Assembly (NCBI RefSeq): GCF_006345805.1
Contig: NC_043006.1
Location: 3,286,001-3,350,000 of the forward strand
DNA: 64,000 nucleotides
Source of the DNA: Octopus sinensis
Lineage: Eukaryota
Reading direction: 5' to 3'
Position numbers and translations under genes: made by a program. This document shows positions 7,000 through 61,399 of the stretch, piece by piece (within the stretch, counting starts at the first letter, position 1; each line of letters starts with the position of its first letter). The notes beneath the pieces were generated by a model that worked only from the letters and a program-made list of their open reading frames with translations, did no database searches and was not told where the DNA came from.

Positions 7000-7995
7000 T
7001 ATATATTTTTGTGATGAAACATTTATATAGTCGACCGATTTCGCTTATGCTAATTAATACTTAGTAGTCAGTGATAGTGTTAGGGATTATAATTTCATAC
7101 TGTCATAGATTTTAATTCCTTGCTTGTAGCAGAACTGATATTATGTAAATGAATCACGAGGTCAATAAATTTTCGTGGACGTAAGTATTGATCGCACTTA
7201 TTATAAGCAGGGGAGATAATCAATTACCCCCTTTTTTGTTTGGGAAGTAAATTGTTCATAGGTAGAGAGAAAGATATATCTACGAACTAAAATATTTAAA
7301 CAGTTCAAAATTGGTTATATGTGCATATTAAGACGCGGTTGATATCTTTTAATAAACATAATGTCTTCATTTGACTGTTGCAATACAGAAGTTGTTCCAT
7401 TGTATTAAGCACGTAGGGATATTTTGAATTTTCGTTGGAGATTCCCTCCACATCTCTCTGTATTCGCTTAGTTGTATTTGTCTATATCTTGGGAAACGGA
7501 TTTGTTCTCTATGCTGTAATGTTCTCCGTCTGGGAGACATTTTTGTTTGCCCTATAAATTTGTGCACATATCCTGAACAAGATGTAGAGTAAATTTTCGG
7601 ATGCATGGGTAAAATCAGACTTAATTTTGAATCTTAATCCTATTTAAGATGGAGTTCTGAGCCTTCCAGTAGTTTCGACATGTTTCCCAGTTACGTAACC
7701 CACAGTTTTTCCATTCTTGGTTCCGTTCTTATTGCGTATGATTTTGCATTTGACAGTATTACCTTTAGTGATTTTGACTGTTTTAATTTACTTTTAATAA
7801 TTTTGTGCGTGAAAAAAACTGGGTTCATCTTAGGCTCCTTATTGAGTAAGGGTAAATTTTGAACTATAGCATTATATGCTTCATTGTTCCCGGGGTAATG
7901 GGGAGATATATAGAGTAGTATTTCAAAATTTGGTTTGCTATTTCGTTTGTGTCTGGACATCAATTCTTTTGGTACGGTATATCCCATCATCTATT
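7000..7995 (-). mobile_element. Penelope-like element remnant (RT-EN linker and GIY-YIG endonuclease)
   Basis: ORFs 7691-7990 (LYISPHYPGNNEAYNAIVQNLPLL...KIIKSK.KQSKSLK) and 7367-7606 (IYSTSCSGYVHKFIGQTK...RRRTLQHREQIR) show a degenerate GIY-YIG signature; frameshifted. Confidence 0.8.
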
Positions 7996-15745: not shown

Positions 15746-18619
15746 TCATACAAAGAGTTCAGGCCATTTCTGGTCAAGAGAGACTTTGAACCGAGCGGTC
15801 GTCGGCATCTTCACTATCTCGTCTGGCAGCTTATTCCACGGATCCGCAACCCGGACGGAGAAAGCCACTCTCCTTCGATTGAGATGAAATCGTCGTAGAT
15901 AGAGCTTTTCGGAGTGACCCCGCAGCCGACGCTCTGGAGTAGGAGTGAAGAACAGCTCTTTCGAGAGGTTACACTTTCCGCTTATGATGTTGTGAGCGAG
16001 AATGAGATCACCACGGCGTCGTTGTTTTTCTAGAGAATAAAGGTCGAGCGTCTTCAGCCTTTCTTCATAAGACAAATGCTTGAGACCAAGAACCATGCGG
16101 GTATCCAGCTTCTGGACTCTTTCGAGATGATGTATGTCTTTGAGGAGATAAGGAGAAGAGGCTTGAATCCCGTACTCCAATATGGGTCTCACCAGCGTGA
16201 CATAGAGCGGTAGGAATATGGCTGCTGTGAGCATTCCGAATGACCGTCGAATCAAAAACAGAACTCCGCGTGCTTTGTTGGCAGCATGGACGCACTGGGC
16301 CGAAGGCGAAAAGGAAGAATCCACCAAGATACCCAGGTCCTTTACCTGGTCGGTTCTCTCCACCAGCAGACAACCCGGCTCGAAATCAAGTTGAGTTGCA
16401 GGAGAGGAGCCAACAGGCAGATGACAGCACTTTGACACGTTCAGACACAGGTCCCATTCGTCTGACCATCTCCAAACTTGGTGGAGGCATCGACGAAGAT
16501 CATCTATACCACTGCGCGGAGCGACCAGTTTGACATCGTCGGCAAATAGAAGGGTGTGTTGCGTGAGGTCGTCGGGCAAGTCATTTATGAAGACTAAAAA
16601 CAATAACGGCTCAAACACTGAACCCTGAGGCACGCCACTGCTCGCACTGGAGACGTTGGACAGCGAACCATTAACTTGGACTTGGAAGGAGCGATCTGAG
16701 ATGAAAGCACCAACCCATCGTATAATATCCGGATGGAAACAATATGCTTGAAGCTTGACAAGTAATAGTCGGTGGTTAACCGTGTCAAAGGCTTTGGCAA
16801 AGTCCAATAAAACGATGTCAACAGCATCACCATCATCCAGGATACGCGTCATCAATTCTTCCATTACCAGTAAGTTGGTTAAGCATGATCTCTTCGGCAC
16901 GAAGCCGTGTTGGGAATCAGAGATAGAGGCTGTGCTTTGGAGGTGGAGCAACATACTTTTCTTGAGGATGGTTTCGAACATCTTGCTGATTATTGAAGTA
17001 AGGGAAACCGGTCGGTAGTTAAGCGGGTCTTCGCGGCTCCCTTTCTTGAAAATAGGGCAGATTATCACTGTTCTCCAGTCCGCAGGTACAACACCCGTCG
17101 CCAATGACATATTGTATAGAAGTGTTAAAGGTCCGCAGATGACCGGAGCCAACGCTTTGATAACCTGTGGGTGTATGCCGTCAGGGCCGTGACCCTTGTT
17201 GACATCGAGGCCTTGAATAACGCGTTCGACTTCGTCCCGAGTGATGACCAATCTAGGCATTGGAGGTACCGATATATCAAATGGAGAGGGCTCACCACCA
17301 TCAACTTGTTTGAAAATTGCCGTAAAAGCCTCGGCAAATAACTGACTCTGCTGATAAGGGTCCTCAATTGATACGCCTGTTGAGTCTACCAACGTTGCAA
17401 TTTGGTTGTTCAAGCGGGAATTCCGTTGGACATGGACAAAGAAGGTTTTTGGATTGCGACTGGCGTTTGCCGCGATTCTGCATTCATATCTGAAGCGTTC
17501 TTCCTTTTCAATTTTCACGGCTCGGTCTCGTTGAGTTTTGTACACCTCAAAAGCTGCAGTCGAATCTTGATTTTTGAATTCAGCCCAAGCAATATCTCTG
17601 AATCGAAGTTTTCGTTTAACCTTCTTCGTCACCCAGGGCTTGTGTTTCTTCTTCTTGGGAAGCCCAACGGGAACTGCTTGGTCAGTCAACCAGATTGCAT
17701 ATGCTTTGAGGGACGACCATAGATCGTCAACTGAGGACATCGTCATCAGGGATCGCCAGTCCAGAAGCGCAGAAGCCTCGGTTAGAATTTCAATAATGAT
17801 AGCAGAGAAGATTCTACGTGGCAGCGAAGTAGTCGTGGGTGTAGAAAAAGTTGTGTGCATGTCGAACTTAAAGACCGCGTGATCACTCTTGGCAAGAGGG
17901 GCGCACACAGATAAGCCCGACACTGATCTTGGATAGCGGGAGAAAACCAGATCCAGCATAGATGACTGCTGCCCAGACCGATGCCTTGTCGGAGATTCAA
18001 CATGTTGCGATAGAAAACAACCTTCAGCCACGTCAAGAAGGGCCTGGCCGAACCGGGAAGATGATCTACAAATTGATGCGGGCCAATCGATCGTGGGAGC
18101 GTTGAAGTCTCTTAATATCAAACATTCATGAGAAGATGAAACGAATCTTATCGCTTCGAGTAAATGAGCATTGTCCTGGTGGTCGGCAAGAGGCGGCCTG
18201 TAGACAGCTAACACGGGCAGGCAAAACCCGGATAGGCTCAGCTTGCAATAGACGGCATCGAATTTTGTTGTAGGTTGAGCATTAGTGGGTAGAATACAGC
18301 TGGACGGTTTGGGATCAGATTTGACATACACAGCAACACCTCCACCTCGCCTTTTTTCTCTGTCACATCTGAAGAGGACGTAGCCCTGTAGGTAGATTTC
18401 CGAGTCCTTTACTGCTGGAGTCAGCCAAGCCTCGGTGATAGCTATCACATCTGGGGAATCACGTATGGCCAGTGTAGATAATTCGCTGAACTTTGGAAAT
18501 AAGGAGCAGGAGTTGATATAGATGATGCTGAGCTGTGAAGTTTGAGGGGCGGAAATTAGGGAACAAGCAGAATAAGGGGTATCAGAGATAGCATCGTTGT
18601 CGGGGGTATCTACTTTACT
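15746..18619 (-). CDS. LINE ORF2: AP endonuclease + reverse transcriptase (CR1 group)
   Basis: Stop-free frame extends upstream of the 900-aa track ORF (LSIIYINSCSL...IAITEAWL); motifs RGGGVA, VYRPP, DFNAP, SDH, GPDGIH, NYRPVSLTS, QHGF, LDFAKAFD, GVPQGSV, FADD, KDLGI, VRPILEY, RRRGDL, WNKLP. Confidence 0.93.
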   Translation of the reverse strand, partial: SKVDTPDNDAISDTPYSACSLISAPQTSQLSIIYINSCSLFPKFSELSTLAIRDSPDVIAITEAWLTPAVKDSEIYLQGYVLFRCDREKRRGGGVAVYVKSDPKPSSCILPTNAQPTTKFDAVYCKLSLSGFCLPVLAVYRPPLADHQDNAHLLEAIRFVSSSHECLILRDFNAPTIDWPASICRSSSRFGQALLDVAEGCFLSQHVESPTRHRSGQQSSMLDLVFSRYPRSVSGLSVCAPLAKSDHAVFKFDMHTTFSTPTTTSLPRRIFSAIIIEILTEASALLDWRSLMTMSSVDDLWSSLKAYAIWLTDQAVPVGLPKKKKHKPWVTKKVKRKLRFRDIAWAEFKNQDSTAAFEVYKTQRDRAVKIEKEERFRYECRIAANASRNPKTFFVHVQRNSRLNNQIATLVDSTGVSIEDPYQQSQLFAEAFTAIFKQVDGGEPSPFDISVPPMPRLVITRDEVERVIQGLDVNKGHGPDGIHPQVIKALAPVICGPLTLLYNMSLATGVVPADWRTVIICPIFKKGSREDPLNYRPVSLTSIISKMFETILKKSMLLHLQSTASISDSQHGFVPKRSCLTNLLVMEELMTRILDDGDAVDIVLLDFAKAFDTVNHRLLLVKLQAYCFHPDIIRWVGAFISDRSFQVQVNGSLSNVSSASSGVPQGSVFEPLLFLVFINDLPDDLTQHTLLFADDVKLVAPRSGIDDLRRCLHQVWRWSDEWDLCLNVSKCCHLPVGSSPATQLDFEPGCLLVERTDQVKDLGILVDSSFSPSAQCVHAANKARGVLFLIRRSFGMLTAAIFLPLYVTLVRPILEYGIQASSPYLLKDIHHLERVQKLDTRMVLGLKHLSYEERLKTLDLYSLEKQRRRGDLILAHNIISGKCNLSKELFFTPTPERRLRGHSEKLYLRRFHLNRRRVAFSVRVADPWNKLPDEIVKMPTTARFKVSLDQKWPELFV

Positions 18620-21563: not shown

Positions 21564-22498
21564 TAGCAAATAGTAAAAAGTGAAAAAACTACAGAAGGCT
21601 TGTTTTAAAGGTTAAAAAATATATATTTGAGTCAATATGTCTGAAGAATATTATAAATTTTTTTCCTTACAATGACATAGTTAGAAGAAAGACCGGTTTC
21701 GCGTTTAGCTTTTCAAATTTCTTACGTCGTTATGTTTATGTTGAGCAGAGTTATCGTTATGTTTATGTTGAAAAGAGTTCTAAATAAAGGGAGGTAATGA
21801 GTGATTTCTTCCGGTGTAAGGGAGATAATCGCTTAAAATTTTTTGCCTTTCCCTTGGTGTGAATTTCTCTGTATCAGTATGTTGGAATGGTCAAGCCTGG
21901 GCTTGTACTTTTCAATGAAGAATATTTCCTTGTTTAGTCTAATTTGTGTTGATGATCCGATAGCACATTGGTAAAATGGAACGATTAAAAATTGTGGTAG
22001 TAGAAATGCGCAAAGCAACTACTACCACAATTTTTAATCTTTCCATTTTACCAATGTGCTATCGGATCATCAACACAAATTAGACTAAACAAGGAAACAT
22101 TCTTCATTGAAAAGTACAAGCCCAGACTTAACCATTCCAACATACTGATACAGAGAAATTCACACCAAGGGAAAGGCAAAAAATTTTAAGCGATTATCTC
22201 CCTTACACCGGAAGAAATCACTCATTACCTTCCCTTATTTAGAACTCTTTTCAACATAAACATAACGATAACTCTGCTCAACATAAACATAACGACGTAA
22301 GAAATTTGAAAAGCTAAACGCGAAACCGGTCTTTCTTCTAAACTATGTCATTGTAAGGAAAAAAAATTATAATATTCTTCAGACATATTGACTCAAATAT
22401 ATATTTTTTAACCTTTTAAAACAAGCCTTCTGTAGTTTTTTCACTTTTTACTATTTTCTATATATTCAACCACGTGCTTTCACAAACCAACTTTCTTA

Positions 22499-39149: not shown

Positions 39150-42100
39150 GAGCGATAAAACAGTGCTCCGAAACCTATCCACAAACATCGGAAACATAGA
39201 CATCGCGTGGAGCCAAAAAATAACTAACAAAGGATTGGACTGTATCCGAGTAAGTAATATTAATTGAAATTTATTGCTATTTTCCAAACGAAATGATGTA
39301 TTTTAACTCGATATCATCTCCACCTCTCACACAACACATGTAAACATGCGTGGTACATTACGATCCATCAACACCAGATCATCTCCGGCCCCAAACACCA
39401 TGTACAAAAAAAACTACGAAGAAATTAAATAACACCGATATTATTCAACCCAAGAATAGCAATCGGGAAGTCATTAAACTTACAACATAAAATGTATGAA
39501 AAAATAAGAGTGCAAAGCAATGTGACAACAGAAATGAACAGACCGGTACCCTACGAAAATGACGACCGTCAAAATAATGGGCCGGACGTTGTTCCTCATG
39601 TCCCGCAAATAAAACCAAAACGGCATAAATGGACACGTGAGGAATACATTTCTATCCTACACGCTTACTTTACAGCAGTGCTCTACCCAAAGAACGAAAA
39701 CACAACAACATATACATATAAAATATGGAAGAAAAATAACATAAATAAAGACCTGGATACAGCAATGAACCCTAATAAACTAGCAAACGTACGAAGATAT
39801 ATTCTCAACGCAAAAAAATATCAGAAATAAAAATAGAACATTTAAAAGAAAAAATACATCAGGAAGATGTAGATAGAAGCCACACAACAATGAAAAATAA
39901 TATGAATACTGAGATAGTAAAACAGGAAGACAAACGTAACATTCCCAACAAAAACGATGTAAACAAAAAACAACAAACCCAGACCGTAAAGATGCATAAT
40001 AATGCACGACAAGCAGCAAGCCAAAACACGACAGACAAGCATACGAATGAGTAAGTAAGCAACACAAATCTAAAACCTGGAAACAACGAAGGGGAGCCTA
40101 ATGATTATGACACTATAAAAAGTAGAATAATCAAAGAACTGAAAACTACAGATCTCAAAATGGACCATCGATCATACCTCCCAAAAATCAAAATAGACAA
40201 AAAATCAACATCAATTATAAATAGCATAAACCTAGCCGTCACGGAACTAATAGCCACTGAAACAAATAGCGATATCACTGAGCTAAATGACTTAGTATAC
40301 GCAGCAGCCACTGCAGCCACAAAAGAAGCTGGATACTCACTCAAACCCATCCAAACAGGAGTACCACCACCCAAACAAACCCTGTGGATAAATAGCATCC
40401 AAAACAAAATACAAAAAATGAGAAAAGACCTGTCGATTCTTAACGAAATCAGTAGACAATCATCGCTACTAAGCAACAAAAAGAAAACAAAAATACTCCG
40501 CAAATATAACATCACAGAAAACGATTTACCTGAGATGAAAGAAAAGCTAAAGCAAGATATCCTTGCCAAAGCACAAAGGATCCGCCGGTATGAGAAACGC
40601 CATCGTTTCTTTGAACAAAACAAACAGTTCAACTCCAACCCCAAAAAGTTCTACCAAGAACTTGGCAAAAATAAAATAGACATCACTGCAGCACCAACGG
40701 CAGAAAAAGTGGAAGAATTCTGGAAAGGAATATGGTCGGCGAATGAACAACCAAAAAAAAAAAAGGAGTATTAAAACAACAAACATAGCATCTGAGCAAC
40801 TTTGGACCCCCATAACAACCGAAGAGGTCACCCAGGCACTGCAAAGACTAGGCAACTGGAAGGCACCTGGGCATGACAAGATCCCCAACTTCTGGTTGAA
40901 ATATCTAACAGGAATGCACAAAAAGTTGGCTGAAAACTTTAACAACATACTAGCAGAGCCAGAGACAATGCCTGAATGGCTCACGAAGGGGAAAACCATC
41001 TTAATTCCCAAATCCAATGAGACAGCAAAACCAGAAAACTACAGACCTATAATCTGTCTCCCTACAATGTACAAAGCATTTACTGCAGTAATATCACCAA
41101 GATTAAACAAGCACCTGGACGAAAAACAACCTGTTTCCAGAAGAGCAGAAAGGATGCCGCAAAGGCTCATATGGCTGTAAAGATCAAATAATGATCAATA
41201 AAGCCATAACTGAAGACAGCCACAGAAAGAAGAAAGGCCTCAGTATGGCCTGGATTGACTACAAAAAGGCGTTTGATAGCATCCCCCACACATGGATCCT
41301 CGAAACACTAGCCATTAACAAAGTAGCACCAACAATCATAAAATTCATAGGGCACTCTATGAATAAATGGCAAACAGTGCTACAGCTCCAAACAAAAGAG
41401 GGACTTGTGAAAACCAAAGCCATTCCCATTAGAAGAGGTATATTCCAGGGAGACACGCACTCTCCACTCCTTTTCTGCTTGGCACTGTCACCTCTATCTG
41501 ATATGCTAAATAGAACTGAATGCGGATATAAATGTTACGGTAAAACGATCAGCCACCTTTTATATATGGATGACCTAAAACTATACGCTGCAAATGACAA
41601 ACAGCTGGAAACACTATTAAAGACAGTTCATGAATTTACCAAAGAAATAGATATGAAATTTGGATTAGAAAAATGCGCCAAAGTAACCCTGAAAAGAGGA
41701 AAACTAGTTAAGAGTAGCAACATCACGCTAGATAAAGCCAATGAAAAAAGAGAATTACACCAAAGCCAAACTTACAAATACTTAGGAATCCATGAACTAG
41801 ATAAGACACAACACACACAAATGAAAGAGAAAATAAAAAAAGAATACTATAGACGAGTTAGATCAATACTAAAAAGAGAGCTCAATGCTAAAAACAAAAT
41901 AATAGGTATTAACACTTTAGCCGTCCCAGTTATAAGTTACAGCTACAATATCCTTAACTGGACACGAAATGAACTGACCAAAATAGATAGGAAAACAAGA
42001 AAAATACTGACAGGATCTAGGATGCATCACCCAAAATCTGACATAGAAAGACTATATATACAACGTATAGAAGGTGGTAGAGGCCTTATACAGCTGGAAA

Positions 42101-43024
42101 ACTACTATAAAATAACCACCATAGGACTGCAAAAATATCTACTTCAGAGGGAAGGAAAACTGATCCAGATAGCAGCAAAACACGAGCAAAACAAAAAAAC
42201 TGTTCTCAGTATTTAAGGAAGCTGACAAATACAAACAAGAAATCATACCACCTAATAAACATGATGAAGAAGAAGAAGAAGATGAAGTAACAACAAAAGC
42301 TATAAAACAAATGAAATCCAAACTAAAACTAGAACAGCAACAAACCATGATAAAACGATGGCAAGAAAAGCCCCTTCATGGCAAATACTGGACTAAACAA
42401 AATGCAAAAGAAATAGACAAAGAAAAATCCCAGCAATGGTTGAGAAGCTCAGGACTCAAAGTAGAGACAGTGGGATTTTTAATTGCAGCACAAGACCAAA
42501 GCCTCTCCACCAGAAGTGGTATGGGCACACACCAGAAAATGTCACAGAAAACGAGAAAGCACCCATACTCTGGGATATGCCAATACACACAGATAGCGAA
42601 ATTAGGGCCAAGAGACCAGATATATTTTTCAGAGATCATGAAGAACAAAAATGCTTTCTCATTGATGTATCAATACCAGCAGATGACAACGTGTCTCTAA
42701 AAGAAATGGAGAAACTTTCAAAATACAAAGACCTGGAAATAGAGGTAACTAGAATGTGGAATCTAAAAACAGAAACAATTCCTATCATAGTAGGTGCATT
42801 AGGCATGATAAAAAAATATTCAGGCAAATGCATAACAAAAACACCAGGACTTACAAACACATATAACATACAGAAAATTGCACTATTAGGTACTGCACAC
42901 ATCCTACGCAGAACACTTTCCATACAGTAACCATCAGAGCATCACAACAAATCACAGCACATACCCAAGGCACACAGAGCTGCGCTCGGTAGTGAAGTGA
43001 AAGCACGATATAAAAATAAAACTA

Positions 43025-52017: not shown

Positions 52018-52533
52018 TTAATTTCGGGATGATTCGTCAACTCCATCAAAGCATCGTTTGGTCCATACAGTTCTGATCACATCTACTGAACTCATATTTT
52101 TTCCGTCTAAATGATTTTGAAAACTGCAGAATAAATTACAATCAGAAGGGGAAATGTCCAACGAATATGGTGGGCGGGGCATCGTTTCCCATTCAAACTG
52201 CTCCAGCATTTGGAATGTCATCGTCGTTGTAGGTGACCGAGCATTATCCCGATCTCCATATACTACATTGATATTCCTCGCGCTTTCCGTTATGTTGTTG
52301 CCTTTATTGAACTCATAAAGCAAAGTATGCCTAATATGCTCTTTTGTCACTCCCATTATAGCTTTGAAAAATAGTTGTTAACTGCAATCTTCAAAACTTG
52401 CACTAAGAATAAGAACAAGGTAAAGTTACTACCAGCTTTTATAGCAAGTTAATGCAAGTAGTATACCTGGCCCTACTCCGACTTTTAGTTCATGCAATTG
52501 AAAAAAAAGGCATTATTTATGGGATGACCAAAT
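52018..52533 (-). mobile_element. Internally deleted mariner transposon
   Basis: N-terminal HTH (KEHIRHTLLYEF...VYGD) fused to C-terminal DNARSP...PPYSLDISPSD; TIR-like TTTGGTCATCCCATAAATAATG at 52511-52532. Confidence 0.85.
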
Positions 52534-53322: not shown

Positions 53323-54218
53323 ATGTTTCTTTATTAGCCACACAGGGCTGCACACAGATAGAACAAATTACAAGGTAGAGCTTTTCTTTTGAAGGTTTAA
53401 AAAAAAAAAAAGGAAGGGGGAGTTTCGATCAAAAGGGATCGTAAAAGGAGAGAAAGAGGACAAAAAAAGGGGGGTTAAAAAAAAGGGGAGAGGAAAAAAA
53501 AATTGATCAATAGGATCGTTATCACAGAAATGTCAATATGAAGTGTAAAAGGGAGGACAGGTGAGGTTTACCCGTGGAAAGAAAAGCCTACGGAAAAGAC
53601 CACGGTAACCTCGGTCAATGAAGTCACATTTTATATTCTTTTTTTTTTTTTTTTTTGCAAATAAGCAACTCTCTGTTTTCGATTTCTGGGTTCATAGGAC
53701 TATGCTCAAGGTGGCTTCGTCATTCATACGTGCCATTCTTGCTACATTCACCCATCTTTTTTTAAAACATTCGCTAGACAAAACTTGCCTCTCTACTCTC
53801 ACTTTCCTTTTCAAGTGGTACTTGAAGAAGTTGATGAGAGATTGACCAGAGAGGAAAGTGTTTGTCTCCAATCCTTTCAGACGCGTCCACCAGATACATT
53901 CTTTCGCCATAGCCACAAGGATGATGAAAATAGCTCTTCCTTCCCGTTTGAAGGAAGGAGGCGTGACAATATTGACGATAGACTCAGCTGATAAACCGAC
54001 TCGTCCCACACGTGACAGCAGTTGTTCGACATAAGTCCACAGGTCGGAAATTGTTGGACACTGAACGAGTGCGTGCAGAACGGTTTCGTCGCTCTGACCG
54101 CATCTCGGGCAGGTCGGCCCCGTGTTTCTCGAGCCGTGTCTGTAGAGCTTATCCCGAACGGGTAGCGCTTCTCGGTAGCACTGCCAGGCCAGGGATCTCT
54201 GGAAGTTGTCCATGGGCC
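53323..54218 (-). mobile_element. 5'-truncated Tx1/L1-clade LINE inserted in (GATA)n
   Basis: Uninterrupted 173-aa zf-RVT C-terminus ([12 protein letters not shown]...[18 protein letters not shown]), pyrimidine-rich 3' UTR, AATAAA, then (TATC)n; GATA repeats on both flanks. Confidence 0.9.
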
Positions 54219-54273
<55 letters not shown>

Positions 54274-54291
54274 CAGACAGGTAGGTAGATT

Positions 54292-54358
<67 letters not shown>

Positions 54359-55639
54359 TGATAGATAGATAGATAGATAGATAGAACTGCAAAATTATAA
54401 TTATATGCAAAAATTGTATAGTTGTGATCAGTTAAATCAGAACAGCAAAGTCAAATTATCAATTATATTTTATTCACTAAACATAAATCAAGATCCAATT
54501 GTATCAAGTTTGTTGAAATATGGTAGTTTATGGTTTCCACGAAAGAGATAATTAAATATCGAAAATATTCGAATGATATATCAGAATATCTAAATCATAT
54601 TACAACAGAGGAATAATAGCTAAAAATTAGATGGTTCATACGATTCGTTATTTAGGAATTGGCTGAGGGTTCTTCAGTTTCTGTGATATCCTAAATGCTT
54701 CATGGTGTAGAGAAAACCAGCTGTTAATGCTGCCCCTTTGTGATGGAAGCATCTTGCAAAAAATAAAAAATAAGTGAAGCCATATGATAGTAAAGGAAAC
54801 TTTCCTCCAGCCATCTCATCGGACATGTTATAAATGTAATACCAACGTATATGGACGAGTTTGGCTAAATAAAGATAATGAAACGGAAGAAGGTCTTGAG
54901 AAGATCATAGTAATAAATTCCATAGCAAGTTTTAAATCTCTCAAGGAAACACCGAAGCGCAGGGATTATGAAGACAGAGAGTCTGCTTAGTTCCCATTCA
55001 TGTGTTCTGTTGTAAATCGCCAGAGTGACTACCTGGCAGATTAAGGGAACTAAGGATTAATTGTTTATTAATAAATACAAGGGGAAAGATAAAGTTAGAG
55101 ATCAGACGAAAATGTTCAAAGGTGCCAGTTTATTACTATATTGGCAGAAGTGTCATTGAAAGAAGGAAGGAAAAATATATAAGAAAACCGAGACAGACAT
55201 AGGATTTGAAACCATGTGGACGAAGATGCACAACAAATCTACACCAGCACCACTGGAATTATGGTTTAATATTATTTGACCGATTACAGCTGAAATCAAA
55301 GAATACCTTTAGTTACTTTATGCAAGAAAGATATTAAGCATGCGAGAAATAAGATGTAGGAGACATTTTATACAGGATCAGCAGCGATTAAACTGAAGTA
55401 ATACAAATAAGAACGATAGCTTTAGCATTATCAATATTATGTAAATTAGCTGAATGCATTTTAAAGAAAGTTATATTGGTGTGCACAACGGATCAATAAA
55501 TTTGAATATTAATTAGACTTGATCTATACCTGGGAATTTCGAGTATTTCCATGGAACAATTACAGCTATCCCCACTCTATGGGAGTGCAATATTAATAAT
55601 TGACTGCGAAATTTTGTAATCAATATTTCTCTCTCTAAG

Positions 55640-56608: not shown

Positions 56609-57732
56609 GATACATGTTAAAGATTTTACTATGAATGCTAGAAGAGGCGTTATATATGTATACATGTATGTATGTATGTATGCATGTATGTATGTATGTA
56701 TGTATGTATGTATGTATGTATGTATGTATGTATGTATGTATGTATATATGTGTGTATGTTTGTATGTATGTATGTATGTATGTATGTATGTATGTATACA
56801 TGATCTTAAAGATCATATATATATACAATGCTACATTAATTCCAAAAAGGAGACTATACCATATAATATTTTTCTACCAGTATTACCGCTGTTGAGATTG
56901 ATGTTGCTGATCCTAAATTTACTCATTACACACACACACGCATGTACGCATGCGCGCATGTACGCATGCGCGCATGCACGCACGAACGCTCACAAGCTCG
57001 TACACACGCACGCACGCACACACACACACACACACAAACACACACAGACGCACGCATATATATATATATACACATATATACACATATATACGTATGTGTA
57101 TATAATATGTGTGTGTATATATAAGTTATGTTTGTATGTATGGGTCTATATAATTAATATTATATATACTATGTATAATATAATTATATGTATATATATG
57201 TATATATATATATGTTATATCTATATATATATATATATATAAGTAATTAAATAACTATAATTCTTTTTATGATATAGCCTGCATTAAATATGGCTACAGG
57301 AACTTCAAAATATATATATAATATCTATTTGTAAAAAATATATATATATATATTTTGTATATATATATGAAGTTTTCGAAATGCTGCTGTCTTATACGAA
57401 TTTTTAATTTTTTATAATAACATTATAACATGTTTCATGTTCCTGAAATGAACCTTATCACAAAAAGTTTATATAAAAAAAGACAGCTTCATGCCGTCAA
57501 ACACAAGAAATTCATTTATAATACACAACGGAGTCAGACATCTTAGAGTTCATGTATAGTTGATATATAGTTCATGTATAGTTGATATATAGTTTGAAGT
57601 ATATGTTCAAAGTGTTCGATGCAGTGGCCCACGGTGGCGATACGTATTCAATACAAAAAACAGATCAAAGTGGTGGAAAGCGGTCAATACAGAAGATTGA
57701 TGTTTCCGAAAGAGCGAGGAATTCATTTTTAC

Positions 57733-57910
57733 CTTAAGCAATTGTGATGACCCATGTGGATGTTCGCTGGGTGGTTCTAGTGAGTTTTTGTGAAGTGCTC
57801 GGTTTTATAATGCCTGTTAGATGGTCAATCCAGCGTAGCGTGACGTCATCAACGTTTTGACCAATCGTTTCGTTAGGTGGCTTTAGTCAAGTAGAACGGG
57901 ACGTCATCAT
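57733..57910 (-). promoter_or_regulatory. Possible CRE/CCAAT promoter and short first exon
   Basis: Full CRE TGACGTCA (57841), CCAAT (57861), GACGTCAT (57900), CpG-richer unique DNA, minus-strand donor AAG|GTAAAA at 57733; motifs only. Confidence 0.3.
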
Positions 57911-57916
57911 TATTTT

Positions 57917-57961
<45 letters not shown>

Positions 57962-58420
57962 CATATATACATCATACATACATACATATAATACATACAA
58001 TACACATACATACATATGTGCATACATATGTACATACATACATATTTATATATATATAGATAGATAATCATTTGTGTGTGTGTGTGTGATACCTGTATGT
58101 GAGTGTATTTATATTTATACTGTAAAATACAGTATAATTAGTTGCTATAGTGTATTTGTATGCTTAGTGTCACGGAAAATGTTCTGACTACTTTTGGATA
58201 TCTTTGAGCAGAACCTGTAGTCACAGCATTTATGTAAACATAATTTACAAACGTTTTGAATCGTTCTCGAAAATATTTCGACTTTCCAGAAGATTTAGCA
58301 AATAGATACGCCCTGAGAAAAGTTTTAATAACATACGTTTATATAAAAGTAATGTTGAATGAGACTTGTGCCTGTATGCCTGAACTATATATACACCCAC
58401 ATATACACATACTATAGTAT

Positions 58421-58517
58421 AGGAGTAGCTGTGTGGTAAGTAGCTTGCTTACCAACCACATGGTTCTGGTTTCAGTCCCACTGCGTGGCACCTCAGGCAG
58501 GTGTCTTCTGCAATAGT
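58421..58517 (+). mobile_element. SINE family A, head
   Basis: AGGAGTAGCTGTGTGGTAAGTAGCTTGCTTACCAACCAC. Confidence 0.8.
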
Positions 58518-58632
58518 ATGCATGCATGCATACATGTATCTACGTATGTATGTAAATATGCATGTATGCATGCTTATATTTATCTATATACGTATGAGTA
58601 TATATATATATATATATTATATATATATGTAA

Positions 58633-58945
58633 TATGATATAGTGTATATTTAAACGCATAAGGAATCCACTTATAGGAATTCAACACGCTAGAAAGAACA
58701 GCTAGGTAGCTAGGTTCTATAATCACAAAAATTAGGGATAGATGGTAAAAAAACATTTTACCATCTAGTTTCCTGGACCAATTGGCTTCTGATTTTAGTT
58801 TAGCGAGTCAAGGAATTCCTATAGGTTGAATTCCTACAAGTGGATTCCTCATGTGTTTAAATATACACTATATCGTATGACTAATATATAGTCTTTTGAA
58901 CTAAATTTTTTACACGTTAGACCACTGGAAATGTAAATTTTAATT
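58633..58945. mobile_element. Small non-coding inverted-repeat element related to 59009-59659
   Basis: IR 58633-58685 / 58825-58877; shares AGGAA...ATAGG.ATTCA..C.CTAGAAA.AACAGC and AAAAAACATTT(T)ACC with the neighbour; (TA)n flanks. Confidence 0.6.
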
Positions 58946-58961
58946 AATTTCTATTTCCCTT

Positions 58962-59008
<47 letters not shown>

Positions 59009-59010
<2 letters not shown>

Positions 59011-59654
59011 CACAATCAAGGAACGGCCATAATAGGCCATTCACCCACTAGAAATAACAGCCAAAAGCTTTAACCGCAAAATAACATCAATTCCGTAAAC
59101 TAGGAGAAAATTAAAAAACATTTACCCTGTAATTTCTTATACGATGCACCGCTTCGTCTACTGTTTAATGGTAAACTAACCTGATTAAATTAAATCAAGC
59201 CAATCTATCATAGGCCCTTAGATTCATCAGTAAGAAATAGCCAAGTCGGAACAGATATTTTTCACGAGGCATTCCCGTCCCTGCCTCGGCAATATCTGAC
59301 CTAAAATTTTCAAATCATCGCACTCGCGCCAAATTTATCGGCAGCAAATAAATATAAGCCGCCGATTCCATTACGGAATTAACCAGAAAATTCATAATTA
59401 ATCAATATAGGGTGGCAAAAAAAAATTTTGTAGAATTTTTTTGCCACCAGCGGCCTAGTGGGAAAAAATTAAATAGTCATAGACCATTTTTAAGTTCAAC
59501 ATCACAATCAAGGAACGGCCATAATAGGCCATTCACCCACTAGAAATAACAGCCAAAAGCTTTAACCGCAAAATAACATCAATTCCGTAAACCAGGAGAA
59601 AATTAAAAAACATTTACCCTGTAATTTCTTATACGATGCACCGTTTCGTCTACT

Positions 59655-59659
<5 letters not shown>
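59009..59659 (-). mobile_element. Retrozyme-like non-coding element: 492-bp unit plus 159-bp direct repeat
   Basis: 59009-59167 and 59501-59659 are identical except two positions; no ORF; (TA)n on both flanks; contains a hammerhead and several hairpins. Confidence 0.8.
59132..59238 (-). ncRNA. Type I hammerhead ribozyme
   Basis: ATTTCTTA-CTGATGA-A-TCTA...TAGA-C-GAAG-CGGTGCATCG-TA-TAAGAAAT: 8-bp stem I, core, near-palindromic stem III, GUA site; the repeat copy has canonical GAAA. Confidence 0.8.
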
Positions 59660-59726
<67 letters not shown>

Positions 59727-59772
59727 GTATATACGTATTTATATATGTATGTATGTATGTATGTATGTTTGT

Positions 59773-60330
59773 AACGGGAAGCTTTATGAAAATAAACAAA
59801 TGACGAAGGCAGGTGGAATACAAACAAACAATTGTATTAGTATGGCGCTCAGGAATATAAATAAAACAAGTCTTTTACGTTTCGAGCCTACGCTCTTCGA
59901 CAGAAAGATACACAGAAAAGAAACACGGAGAGAAACAAGGAGAGAAAAAAAGTGCGTGCAGAAGCTAGCGAATCAACATGGCGAGTATGGTTTTCAACGG
60001 CTTTTAGTAGTGGGGCTCTGGCTCTGGTTTTGTAGCTCTATTGTTTTAAAGAATGTGAATCCACCTCTTAGCCACTATTGTTGCCCGGTCTATCCTGACC
60101 TTGATTTGTGACTCCTTACAGTATCGGACCTTTAGCTGTTGTCACAGCATCATTCTTGGAGGGGAACACTCTAATGTAAATCTGCGGTTGTATATGATTA
60201 CGAGACATCTTGTTTTGGCTTGTCACGAGGTACGAATCACAGAATCTCAGAGAGTGGAACTCGTGTTGTTTAAGTGCTTATCACTATAATCTTGTGATGT
60301 ATGGATGTTTTTTTTTGTGCTGACCTCATT
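59773..60330 (-). mobile_element. Penelope-like 3' fragment (degraded GIY-YIG tail plus terminal repeat)
   Basis: Degraded GIY-YIG C-terminal remnant (NTRVPLSE..., IQPQIY) followed by the same terminal sequence as 43568 and 23041. Confidence 0.65.
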
Positions 60331-60399
60331 TATAATTTGTTATTCTATTTACTGGAACTAGCAAGTTATGTTTGACCTCTCATCTGAGAGTTCATAGAC

Positions 60400-60815
60400 A
60401 GAATGTCAGAAATGCCATTGAGAACGAGGAAGCACAAGGAGACAGTAATCACCAAAATCATAAAGTGTAAACTACACACCGTCGTCAACAATTGTATGCG
60501 CTACCTCCTCAACGTCTTGTGGAAAAGTTTCAAATAGAAGTATTTGAGATAGAACGAACCAAACCCCATTCAATCAAGATATCCTGAAAAGGAAATAGGG
60601 TTGGATTGGTTACACTCTAGCAGCACTGCAAGACAAGTGTCAATCTAAAAGGAAAAGGAAAGACGGACGACTAAGAAGGCCTGGAAAGGATGTGTGGAGG
60701 ATGAAGCGAAAGCAGTGGATCTCGCTTGGTCTGAAATCAAGGGAATAGGCCAATATCGCATCCACTGGCATGAAATGATCACGGCCCTTTGCTCCTTACA
60801 GAATAATGTGGACTA
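60400..60815 (+). mobile_element. RTE-clade LINE 3' remnant
   Basis: RK.GWIGYTL...KGKGK.GR.KKAWKGCVEDEAKAVDLAWSEIK...RIHWHEMITALCS. Confidence 0.72.
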
Positions 60816-61399
60816 AGAACATTGTAACATACGGTGTATATTTATGAGCAACGGGAAATATATAACAACAGATACTGATTGATTGTATAAGGGAAGTATT
60901 AAGCCCGAGTATAAATCCAACAACCAGTGGTTCTAATCTTAAACACACCGCAATTTGCTGTTGTTCCGGTGTAATTGTCTTGACAAACCCCCTTCATTTC
61001 CAGTTTGTTTTAAAATCATTTTCAATACATTTAATTCTAATAAACATATTTAATATTATTACTGGCGGCATGAATGTATTTTAAGACATTAATAAATAAA
61101 TTATTTTTAAAGATTAAACATTACGTCAATGGATCAATGAAGTGAATGATATGAATTAAAAAATATTATAAACTTCAGAGAGATACAGAGAAGAAAAGGG
61201 AGGGGGAAGAGGGCAAATTGTTTTGAATAGCAACGTGGATGAGGGGGGGGGAGTAAATAAAACATCAAATAGAAGAAAAAAGCAACCAAAGTGTTTTGAA
61301 ATATGAAAACAAAACGAGAAATATTGCTGGAATGGCGGACAAAGAAAGTAGATTGGTAGTGATAAAAGCGGGAAAAGCTGTATATGCGTGGTCGTGAGA

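Follow-up and report, generated by a model that had tools for sequence, protein, structure and literature searches.

A non-LTR retrozyme family in Octopus sinensis with an insertion anatomy resembling that of Penelope-like elements

Non-LTR retrozymes of metazoans, as described for coral, mussel and axolotl (PMC7229834), are non-coding tandem repeats of low GC content with units of 150-450 bp, which occur as dimers to multimers and carry one type I hammerhead ribozyme (HHR) per unit, with a weak palindromic helix III suited to dimer cleavage. Both the RNA circles and the cleavage were shown experimentally for these retrozymes, and Penelope-like elements (PLEs) were proposed as their mobilisers. 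A 2026 preprint on vertebrate non-LTR retrozymes (bioRxiv 10.64898/2026.07.22.740005) reported tandem HHR repeats of 51-972 bp alongside PLEs, the link between the two being co-occurrence and homology to PLE pseudo-LTRs. Its authors favour local array growth by unequal crossover and require two complete HHRs of an 'active' retrozyme; its 35 species, going by the available text, include no mollusc. A literature search that covered articles and part of their supplements found no paper on cephalopod retrozymes, and the words 'ribozyme' and 'retrozyme' are absent from the accessible portion of the main text of an octopus repeat annotation.

The EN+ PLEs of the Neptune and Poseidon type (PMC11167929, PMC8557442, PMC3846280, PMC4209133) form partial tandems with an inverted arm and a tail at one end, target AT-rich or (TA)n DNA, and carry an HHR upstream of two internal reverse-transcription start sites. 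Partial tandems, inverted arms, (TA)n targets and a tail of 30-40 bp, often at one end, were reported in PMC8557442, whereas self-priming was proposed for the inverted junctions in PMC3846280. A PLE protein assayed in vitro nicked AT-rich DNA and extended both of its strands, copying from two internal start sites that flank the tail; uncut RNA served as the main insertion substrate, and the choice of start site did not differ between strands (PMC11167929). How animal retrozymes re-enter the genome is treated as open in the consulted parts of this literature (bioRxiv 10.64898/2026.07.22.740005, PMC8557442, PMC7229834), and so is the origin of the PLE inverted arms and one-sided tail.

The locus studied here lies in a 64-kb stretch of the Octopus sinensis genome (NC_043006.1, positions 3,286,001 to 3,350,000), referred to as the window, whose own coordinates are used below. 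A first full unit of 492 nt at 59009-59500 is followed by a partial second unit of 159 nt at 59501-59659, the minus strand being the RNA-sense strand of both. The resulting 159-nt direct repeat (59009-59167 and 59501-59659) has a period of 492 and two mismatches (59101/59593 and 59152/59644), in agreement with the original prediction of a 492-bp non-coding unit plus a 159-bp direct repeat embedded in (TA)n. The flanking (TA)n target tracts occupy 58964-59008 on the side of the fixed end, called site A below, and 59660-59766 on the side of the variable, truncated end, which joins (TA)n at a TTTA/TATA junction. This copy is thus one-armed, starting at site A and running for 1.32 units. The unit is non-coding, ATG ORFs in 2 kb of one of the arrays (L031) being no longer than 42 aa, and no tRNA-like head was found by ARAGORN in 57000-61000. 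Three positions of the first unit are private or nearly so within the family, namely 59101 (1/148), 59152 (1/135) and 59208 (2/129).

A complete type I HHR is predicted on the minus strand at 59132-59238 from its motif, the family alignment and a motif scan of the whole window, which found this single HHR and on one strand only. Stem I comprises 8 bp (59238-59231 with 59139-59132), the core CUGAUGA lies at 59230-59224 and GAA at 59155-59153, and the palindromic stem III at 59152-59141 is followed by GUA, with the cut between 59140 and 59139. Stem II carries a branched loop of about 57 nt and has an A-C mismatch in the base pair at its foot. A complete minus-strand type I hammerhead had been predicted, of which stem I, CTGATGA, the palindromic stem III and the GUA site stand; however, the core of this copy reads GAAG where the family reads GAAA, and no other of the 135 units compared has its G at 59152 (133 have A and 1 a gap). 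The change falls on HHR position 15.1, which we take to matter for cleavage. A second HHR 3' half at 59624-59652 (minus strand) retains GAAA at 59647-59644 and an intact GUA, with its cut between 59632 and 59631, and its own 5' half has been truncated away. Since the sole complete HHR carries GAAG and the GAAA half lacks its own 5' half, the copy at 59009-59659 is probably inactive and a dead end. With one complete HHR, and that one with GAAG, it is also not 'active' by the two-HHR rule of the vertebrate preprint. An Rfam search returned no hammerhead match at E values up to 1, nor up to 10, for which the long loop II is a likely reason.

In the family, the core positions of the HHR are nearly invariant across 126-135 units from 35 loci. 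Variation among 210 complete matches, a set that includes overlapping loci (188 among the matches listed), sits at position 7, at the foot of stem II and in the choice between GUA and GUC. The same 210 matches contain compensatory swaps in stems I and II, from U-A to C-G and from A-U to G-C, and they are no test of the core letters because the search pattern fixed those letters. Covariation of the pair 10.1-11.1 was considered and rejected, this pair often being mismatched within the family (A-C, A-A, U-U). Helix III is palindromic in the family and in both related families described below, and its computed energy as a hairpin is -0.2 to -0.5 kcal/mol vs. -17.5 to -18.1 kcal/mol as a dimer duplex between units; such a dimer-hammerhead arrangement has been described in PMC4209133.

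The unit as a whole is predicted to be highly structured. The original prediction had proposed folding the unit as a circle against shuffled controls and looking for stem covariation. Using 40 dinucleotide shuffles per condition, the unit is far more stable than the shuffles on both strands, in two phases and in linear as well as circular form (z -4.5 to -7.0). The two long-range complements that had been pointed out are present as helices at 59044-59051/59455-59462 and 59089-59098/59371-59380, and the three proposed hairpins at 59252-59298, 59337-59366 and 59411-59448 were recovered in the predicted folds, together with a further one at 59021-59039. These elements form a putative scaffold on the minus strand (59021-59462) around the two fixed ends described below, based on the predicted folds and on covariation with a second family that is 75% identical. 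In 17 sequences of the latter the helices are kept, 97% of the cells being paired. Both-sided changes between the two families affect 6 of 60 pairs, 4 of them in the HHR, which joins the compensatory swaps within the family as evidence of covariation; this is a comparison of two families with few events, and 48 of 500 shuffles reach the same pair count.

A search of the 2.72-Gb genome gave at least 202 matches, from 39 of 931 candidates, and most of the full-length ones are 96-99% identical. Exact-pattern counts, which are lower bounds, amount to at least 1,317 intact HHR 3' halves, at least 436 junctions of (TA)n with site A and at least 679 junctions of (TA)n with site B, the second fixed end. 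The majority sequence of a locus differs from that of the family by a median of 1.5% (range 0-4.7%, 55 loci), and the arrays consist of exact head-to-tail 492-mers, up to about 12 units. The family is young, dispersed and without protein coding. It thus has the short non-coding tandem unit, the dispersal and the absence of LTRs that define retrozymes, and (TA)n borders its ends also in loci picked by similarity rather than by flank. In addition, junctions of (TA)n with sites A and B occur in several contigs from eight sequencing runs of guessed or unknown kind. Clustered T>C changes at the ends of two contigs resemble A-to-I editing of the HHR strand, in runs that are not recorded as RNA and in a genome that has stem-variant subfamilies. 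An excess of A>G/T>C among locus-wide alleles (8/22 vs. 10/92) was dropped when a larger set gave 6/26.

Two related families extend this picture. The 75%-identical family has the same unit size and the same two ends. A sister family with a 482-nt unit is 48% identical and colinear with the unit (z 11 overall; 8.4, 5.7 and 4.3 by part). The z of its HHR part is only 1.8, the motif having been kept and the letters not, and its hammerhead has a CUGAAGA core and a GUC site; the search returned 1,434 candidates for this family. An older copy of the sister family, absent from the original prediction, lies at 58632-58966, with an A arm at about 58632-58835 (plus strand) and an inverted B arm at 58966-58825, and adjoins the studied element through a common TA tract. 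At least four further CUGAnGA hammerheads with a palindromic stem III, most of them with a long loop II, were seen beside PLE insertions (L074, L098, L099 and L103), and these are probably further retrozyme families. At two loci an internal deletion recurs in consecutive units, from 54 to 206 in L003 (L003:1501-3203) and from 180 to 429 in L208, as the result of either repeated template jumps or later duplication.

The neighbourhood contains other mobile elements. At 57338-57916 (minus strand) lies the 3' end of an autonomous PLE, young and of Neptune type, which shares 95% identity with the copy at L096 and carries a variant minimal hammerhead with a UUGAUAA core, so that together with the sister copy and the studied element there are three PLE-type elements within 2.4 kb. 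A fragment of an extremely abundant, SINE-like short repeat at 58418-58520 gives by far the deepest signal among the contigs compared. Elsewhere in the window there are an open LINE ORF2 of 957 aa with AP endonuclease and reverse transcriptase (RT) at 15749-18619 (minus), further RT pieces at 40680-42213 (plus) and 53695-54450 (minus), a mariner HTH at 52021-52377 (minus), and decayed PLE protein remnants at 7327-7966 (minus) and 22004-22132 (plus), which are 30-39% identical to the young Neptune-type protein.

The original prediction expected copies with permuted start points. In contrast, the starts are fixed at two internal sites, neither of which is the GUA cut. Site A (59009-59030, plus strand; repeated at 59501) is a fixed element end and a likely start of reverse transcription; measured along the RNA, it lies 131 nt downstream of the HHR cut. 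Site B (59390-59415, plus strand; end at about 59394) is the second fixed end, 238 nt downstream of the cut. Site B forms the end of the other arm in two-armed copies and is unused as an end in the one-armed copy at 59009-59659. The interval from A to B is 107 nt and corresponds to the 'tail' of PLEs.

Insertions were then compared in a set of 97, made up of the first 30 listed A-junction and the first 30 listed B-junction loci, minus 10 duplicates, plus 47 A-junction stretches; 13 of the insertion loci were refetched at greater length. Inverted two-armed insertions account for 81 of the 97, and 76 of these 81 pair an A end with a B end, as against 1 with A+A, none with B+B and 4 with another far end. 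The remaining 16 are one-armed (14 with A and 2 with B), at least two of them having a tiny B remnant by eye. Partial tandem, inverted arm, one-sided tail and two fixed starts are thus combined in the manner of a non-autonomous PLE. Given the A+B pairing, the 107-nt tail and the published start sites and architecture of PLEs, the footprint is that of an EN+ PLE, and mobilisation by a PLE, judged from this genomic footprint, is very probable. The near-strict rule of one site per end (76/81) differs from the in vitro PLE reaction, in which the start site was reported not to differ between strands (PMC11167929, as far as its accessible text goes).

Taken together, we consider the element to be a non-autonomous PLE, i.e., a non-LTR retrozyme, copied from circular RNA by a borrowed Penelope-type enzyme, with a probability of roughly 0.7. 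Membership in the retrozyme class is the safest part of this reading and very likely. The proposal that a cephalopod retrozyme family was mobilised by a PLE into TA repeats therefore finds support in the dispersed young tandems, the lack of an ORF, the covarying HHR and the PLE-type architecture.

The nature of the template was approached through the arms themselves. An arm longer than 510 nt is present in 51 of the 97 insertions, and of the 128 arms long enough to reach the first cut site 117 continue past it, so that a cut linear monomer is not the usual template. One alternative is that the same family, with the same PLE enzyme, is copied from an uncut or partly cut linear multimer, its arrays arising by later unequal crossing-over and its HHR only trimming RNA ends. 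Uncut RNA was the main substrate of a PLE in vitro (PMC11167929), and DNA-level growth of arrays after insertion is visible at L040, L032 and L047, so units can homogenise without a circle. Moreover, 11 of the 128 arms end no more than 12 nt from the cut, and there is a cluster of inner ends at 101-140, suggesting that some templates may be cut linear RNA; the modest pile-up at the cut is explained equally well by a stall at stem I.

However, the variants carried by the two arms argue against a linear multimer. Divergence is 0.62% between opposite arms, 0.60% between units within an arm and 1.36% between different loci (183 segments, 35 loci). Haplotypes were compared in 65 two-arm insertions that could be parsed, from L141-L260 and from 16 loci picked by similarity; 37 were informative, and in 18 of these all copies of both arms share a rare allele, which points to a one-unit bottleneck. 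In-register copying of a heterogeneous multimer predicts lap-specific variants mirrored between the arms. Despite the 0.6% divergence within arrays there were none, whereas the laps with a mirror counterpart hold 108 singletons, some of them possibly due to assembly error; 15 alleles are common to copies within one arm, and 5 are shared across arms out of register, in 3 loci. The shared rare alleles and the lack of mirrored variants favour a single monomer per insertion that is read repeatedly. In addition, a conserved cutter in every unit would be expected to destroy a multimeric template. We thus regard the linear multimer as unlikely. The circular RNA template that had been proposed is favoured by these haplotype tests, and on the genomic evidence a circular monomer is the probable template.

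A second alternative concerns the inverted arm, which could be a fold-back (self-primed) copy of the first cDNA, trimmed by the endonuclease, in line with the self-priming proposed for PLE inverted junctions (PMC3846280). Both arms end at the identical template position in 17 of the 76 A+B insertions, where permutation predicts 2.6, and the two arms correlate in length (rho 0.58); the rho of 0.86 in the class in which neither arm is contained in the other was left out of the argument, as it is partly built in by the definition of the class. Deletions at the centre of the palindrome could further blur the pattern. However, neither arm contains the other in 29 of the 76 insertions, and only by chance would a fold-back copy end precisely at A. 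One-armed copies have A (14) or B (2) as their single fixed end, so that both are start sites, and in vitro a PLE protein extends both strands (PMC11167929). The equal arm ends and the correlation fit double priming as well, since cDNAs of the same sense can anneal only through hairpins and two enzymes on one template would travel together. The fold-back origin is therefore very improbable, and two independent RNA-templated arms made by double priming are likely.

Slightly less probable still is that the unit belongs, as a pseudo-LTR, to a longer Penelope element with coding capacity, or that it is a satellite with a hammerhead by descent. In vertebrates, homology between retrozymes and PLE pseudo-LTRs is frequent (bioRxiv 10.64898/2026.07.22.740005), and a rare coding master could be missed because genome searches score the best candidates only. 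The genome holds 5,029 GIY-YIG candidates, the best 150 of which were scored. Two young PLE families were found with open RT + GIY-YIG frames of 775-781 aa, (TA)n targets and minimal HHRs; by published description, their CxxxxCxxC linker makes them Neptune-type. Their tails of about 35-40 and 15-20 nt compare with 107 nt in the retrozyme. The young Neptune-type PLE of L096 (L096:1674-3110) and L100 has another open frame, 479 codons long from stop to stop, which lies upstream of the RT frame and overlaps it; this frame has no confident Pfam match. None of 45 PLE loci yielded an autonomous element with the sequence of the unit by BLAST and profile search, old relatives inserted nearby aside, and none was found in 18 further 3' flanks. 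No RT + GIY-YIG ORF lies between pseudo-LTRs; the arrays are pure head-to-tail units.

Searching all element-bearing loci with two PLE proteins (tblastn) revealed PLE pieces nearby at 8 loci. Among 10 non-TA ends inspected, no second retrotransposon recurs inside the unit, and only one, at L206, runs into coding sequence. There, a retrozyme arm breaks off at unit position 298 and passes directly, with no TA in between, into a 5'-truncated coding fragment of the second young PLE family (91% amino-acid identity to L103). This junction, which could be taken in favour of a coding parent, is possibly a template switch or a later insertion. It was set aside as proof of a PLE partnership, being a single case with a tail-less far end. 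Against a pseudo-LTR stand the arrays of as many as about 12 exact 492-mers joined head to tail, the near-absence of coding sequence at the inspected ends, and the 75% and 48% families, which keep the unit size and colinearity all round; against a satellite stand the dispersed copies with fixed ends. A viroid or viroid-like replicon, passing from RNA to RNA without a DNA form and often bearing ribozymes on both strands, is ruled out by more than 1,000 genomic DNA units and an HHR on one strand only.

The reading of the element as a retrozyme copied from circles by a PLE enzyme suggests the following sequence of events. A tandem array would be transcribed on the hammerhead strand, and neighbouring hammerheads, because helix III is a weak palindrome, are predicted to pair as a dimer and to cut the multimer into 492-nt monomers, which a host ligase is expected to close into circles. 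A Neptune-type PLE protein would nick both strands of a (TA)n tract, and two cDNAs would be primed on one circle, at site A and at site B, 107 nt apart. Each would then follow the circle past the ligated cut, covering anything from part of a lap to several laps, and the two would finally be linked end to end, in many cases where a hairpin or palindrome lies, to give an inverted A+B insertion. Completion of one arm only would leave a one-armed copy such as that at 59009-59659. Arrays may later grow by DNA-level duplication, as shown at some loci. A bolder version, which we offer tentatively and rate somewhat below even odds, holds that a dimeric Penelope-type enzyme loads once on one circle and primes both strands simultaneously, one subunit at A and one at B, and that, with it, the genome hosts hammerhead circles of about 490 nt whose lineage is old, has no close coding parent and is maintained by selection on RNA shape, its three or more families being as little as 48% identical.

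Compared with the retrozymes of coral, mussel and axolotl (PMC7229834), the octopus family shares the non-coding tandem repeats, the single type I HHR per unit, the low GC content and the weak palindromic helix III. It differs in its longer unit (492 nt vs. 150-450 bp), in the long branched loop II and 10-nt palindrome of its HHR, and in being known from genomic DNA alone; of inverted two-armed insertions with fixed starts, no description was found in the available text of PMC7229834. The unit falls within the 51-972 bp of the vertebrate retrozymes and likewise occurs alongside PLEs, and the PLE link rests here on the anatomy of the insertions, no homologous PLE having been found in the searches above, rather than on co-occurrence and pseudo-LTR homology. 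With the EN+ PLEs it has in common the partial tandems, the inverted arm, the one-end tail, the (TA)n targets and the HHR upstream of two internal RT start sites; unlike them, it has no ORF, a tail of 107 nt instead of 30-40, and a long-loop instead of a minimal HHR.

The retrozyme class is already known, and the family is a real addition whose value lies in a clean, countable insertion footprint. With it, the known range of retrozymes would come to include cephalopods. The insertions follow a near-strict A+B rule, include arms of which neither can derive from the other, have haplotypes that suggest one template each, and supply exact start sites; young, short and numbering in the hundreds, they make testable both how retrozymes re-enter the genome and how the arms and tail of PLEs arise. 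If the simultaneous priming by a dimeric enzyme is true, the inverted pseudo-LTRs of PLEs, their one-sided tail and the multi-unit arrays would all come from one coupled rolling-circle double-priming reaction.
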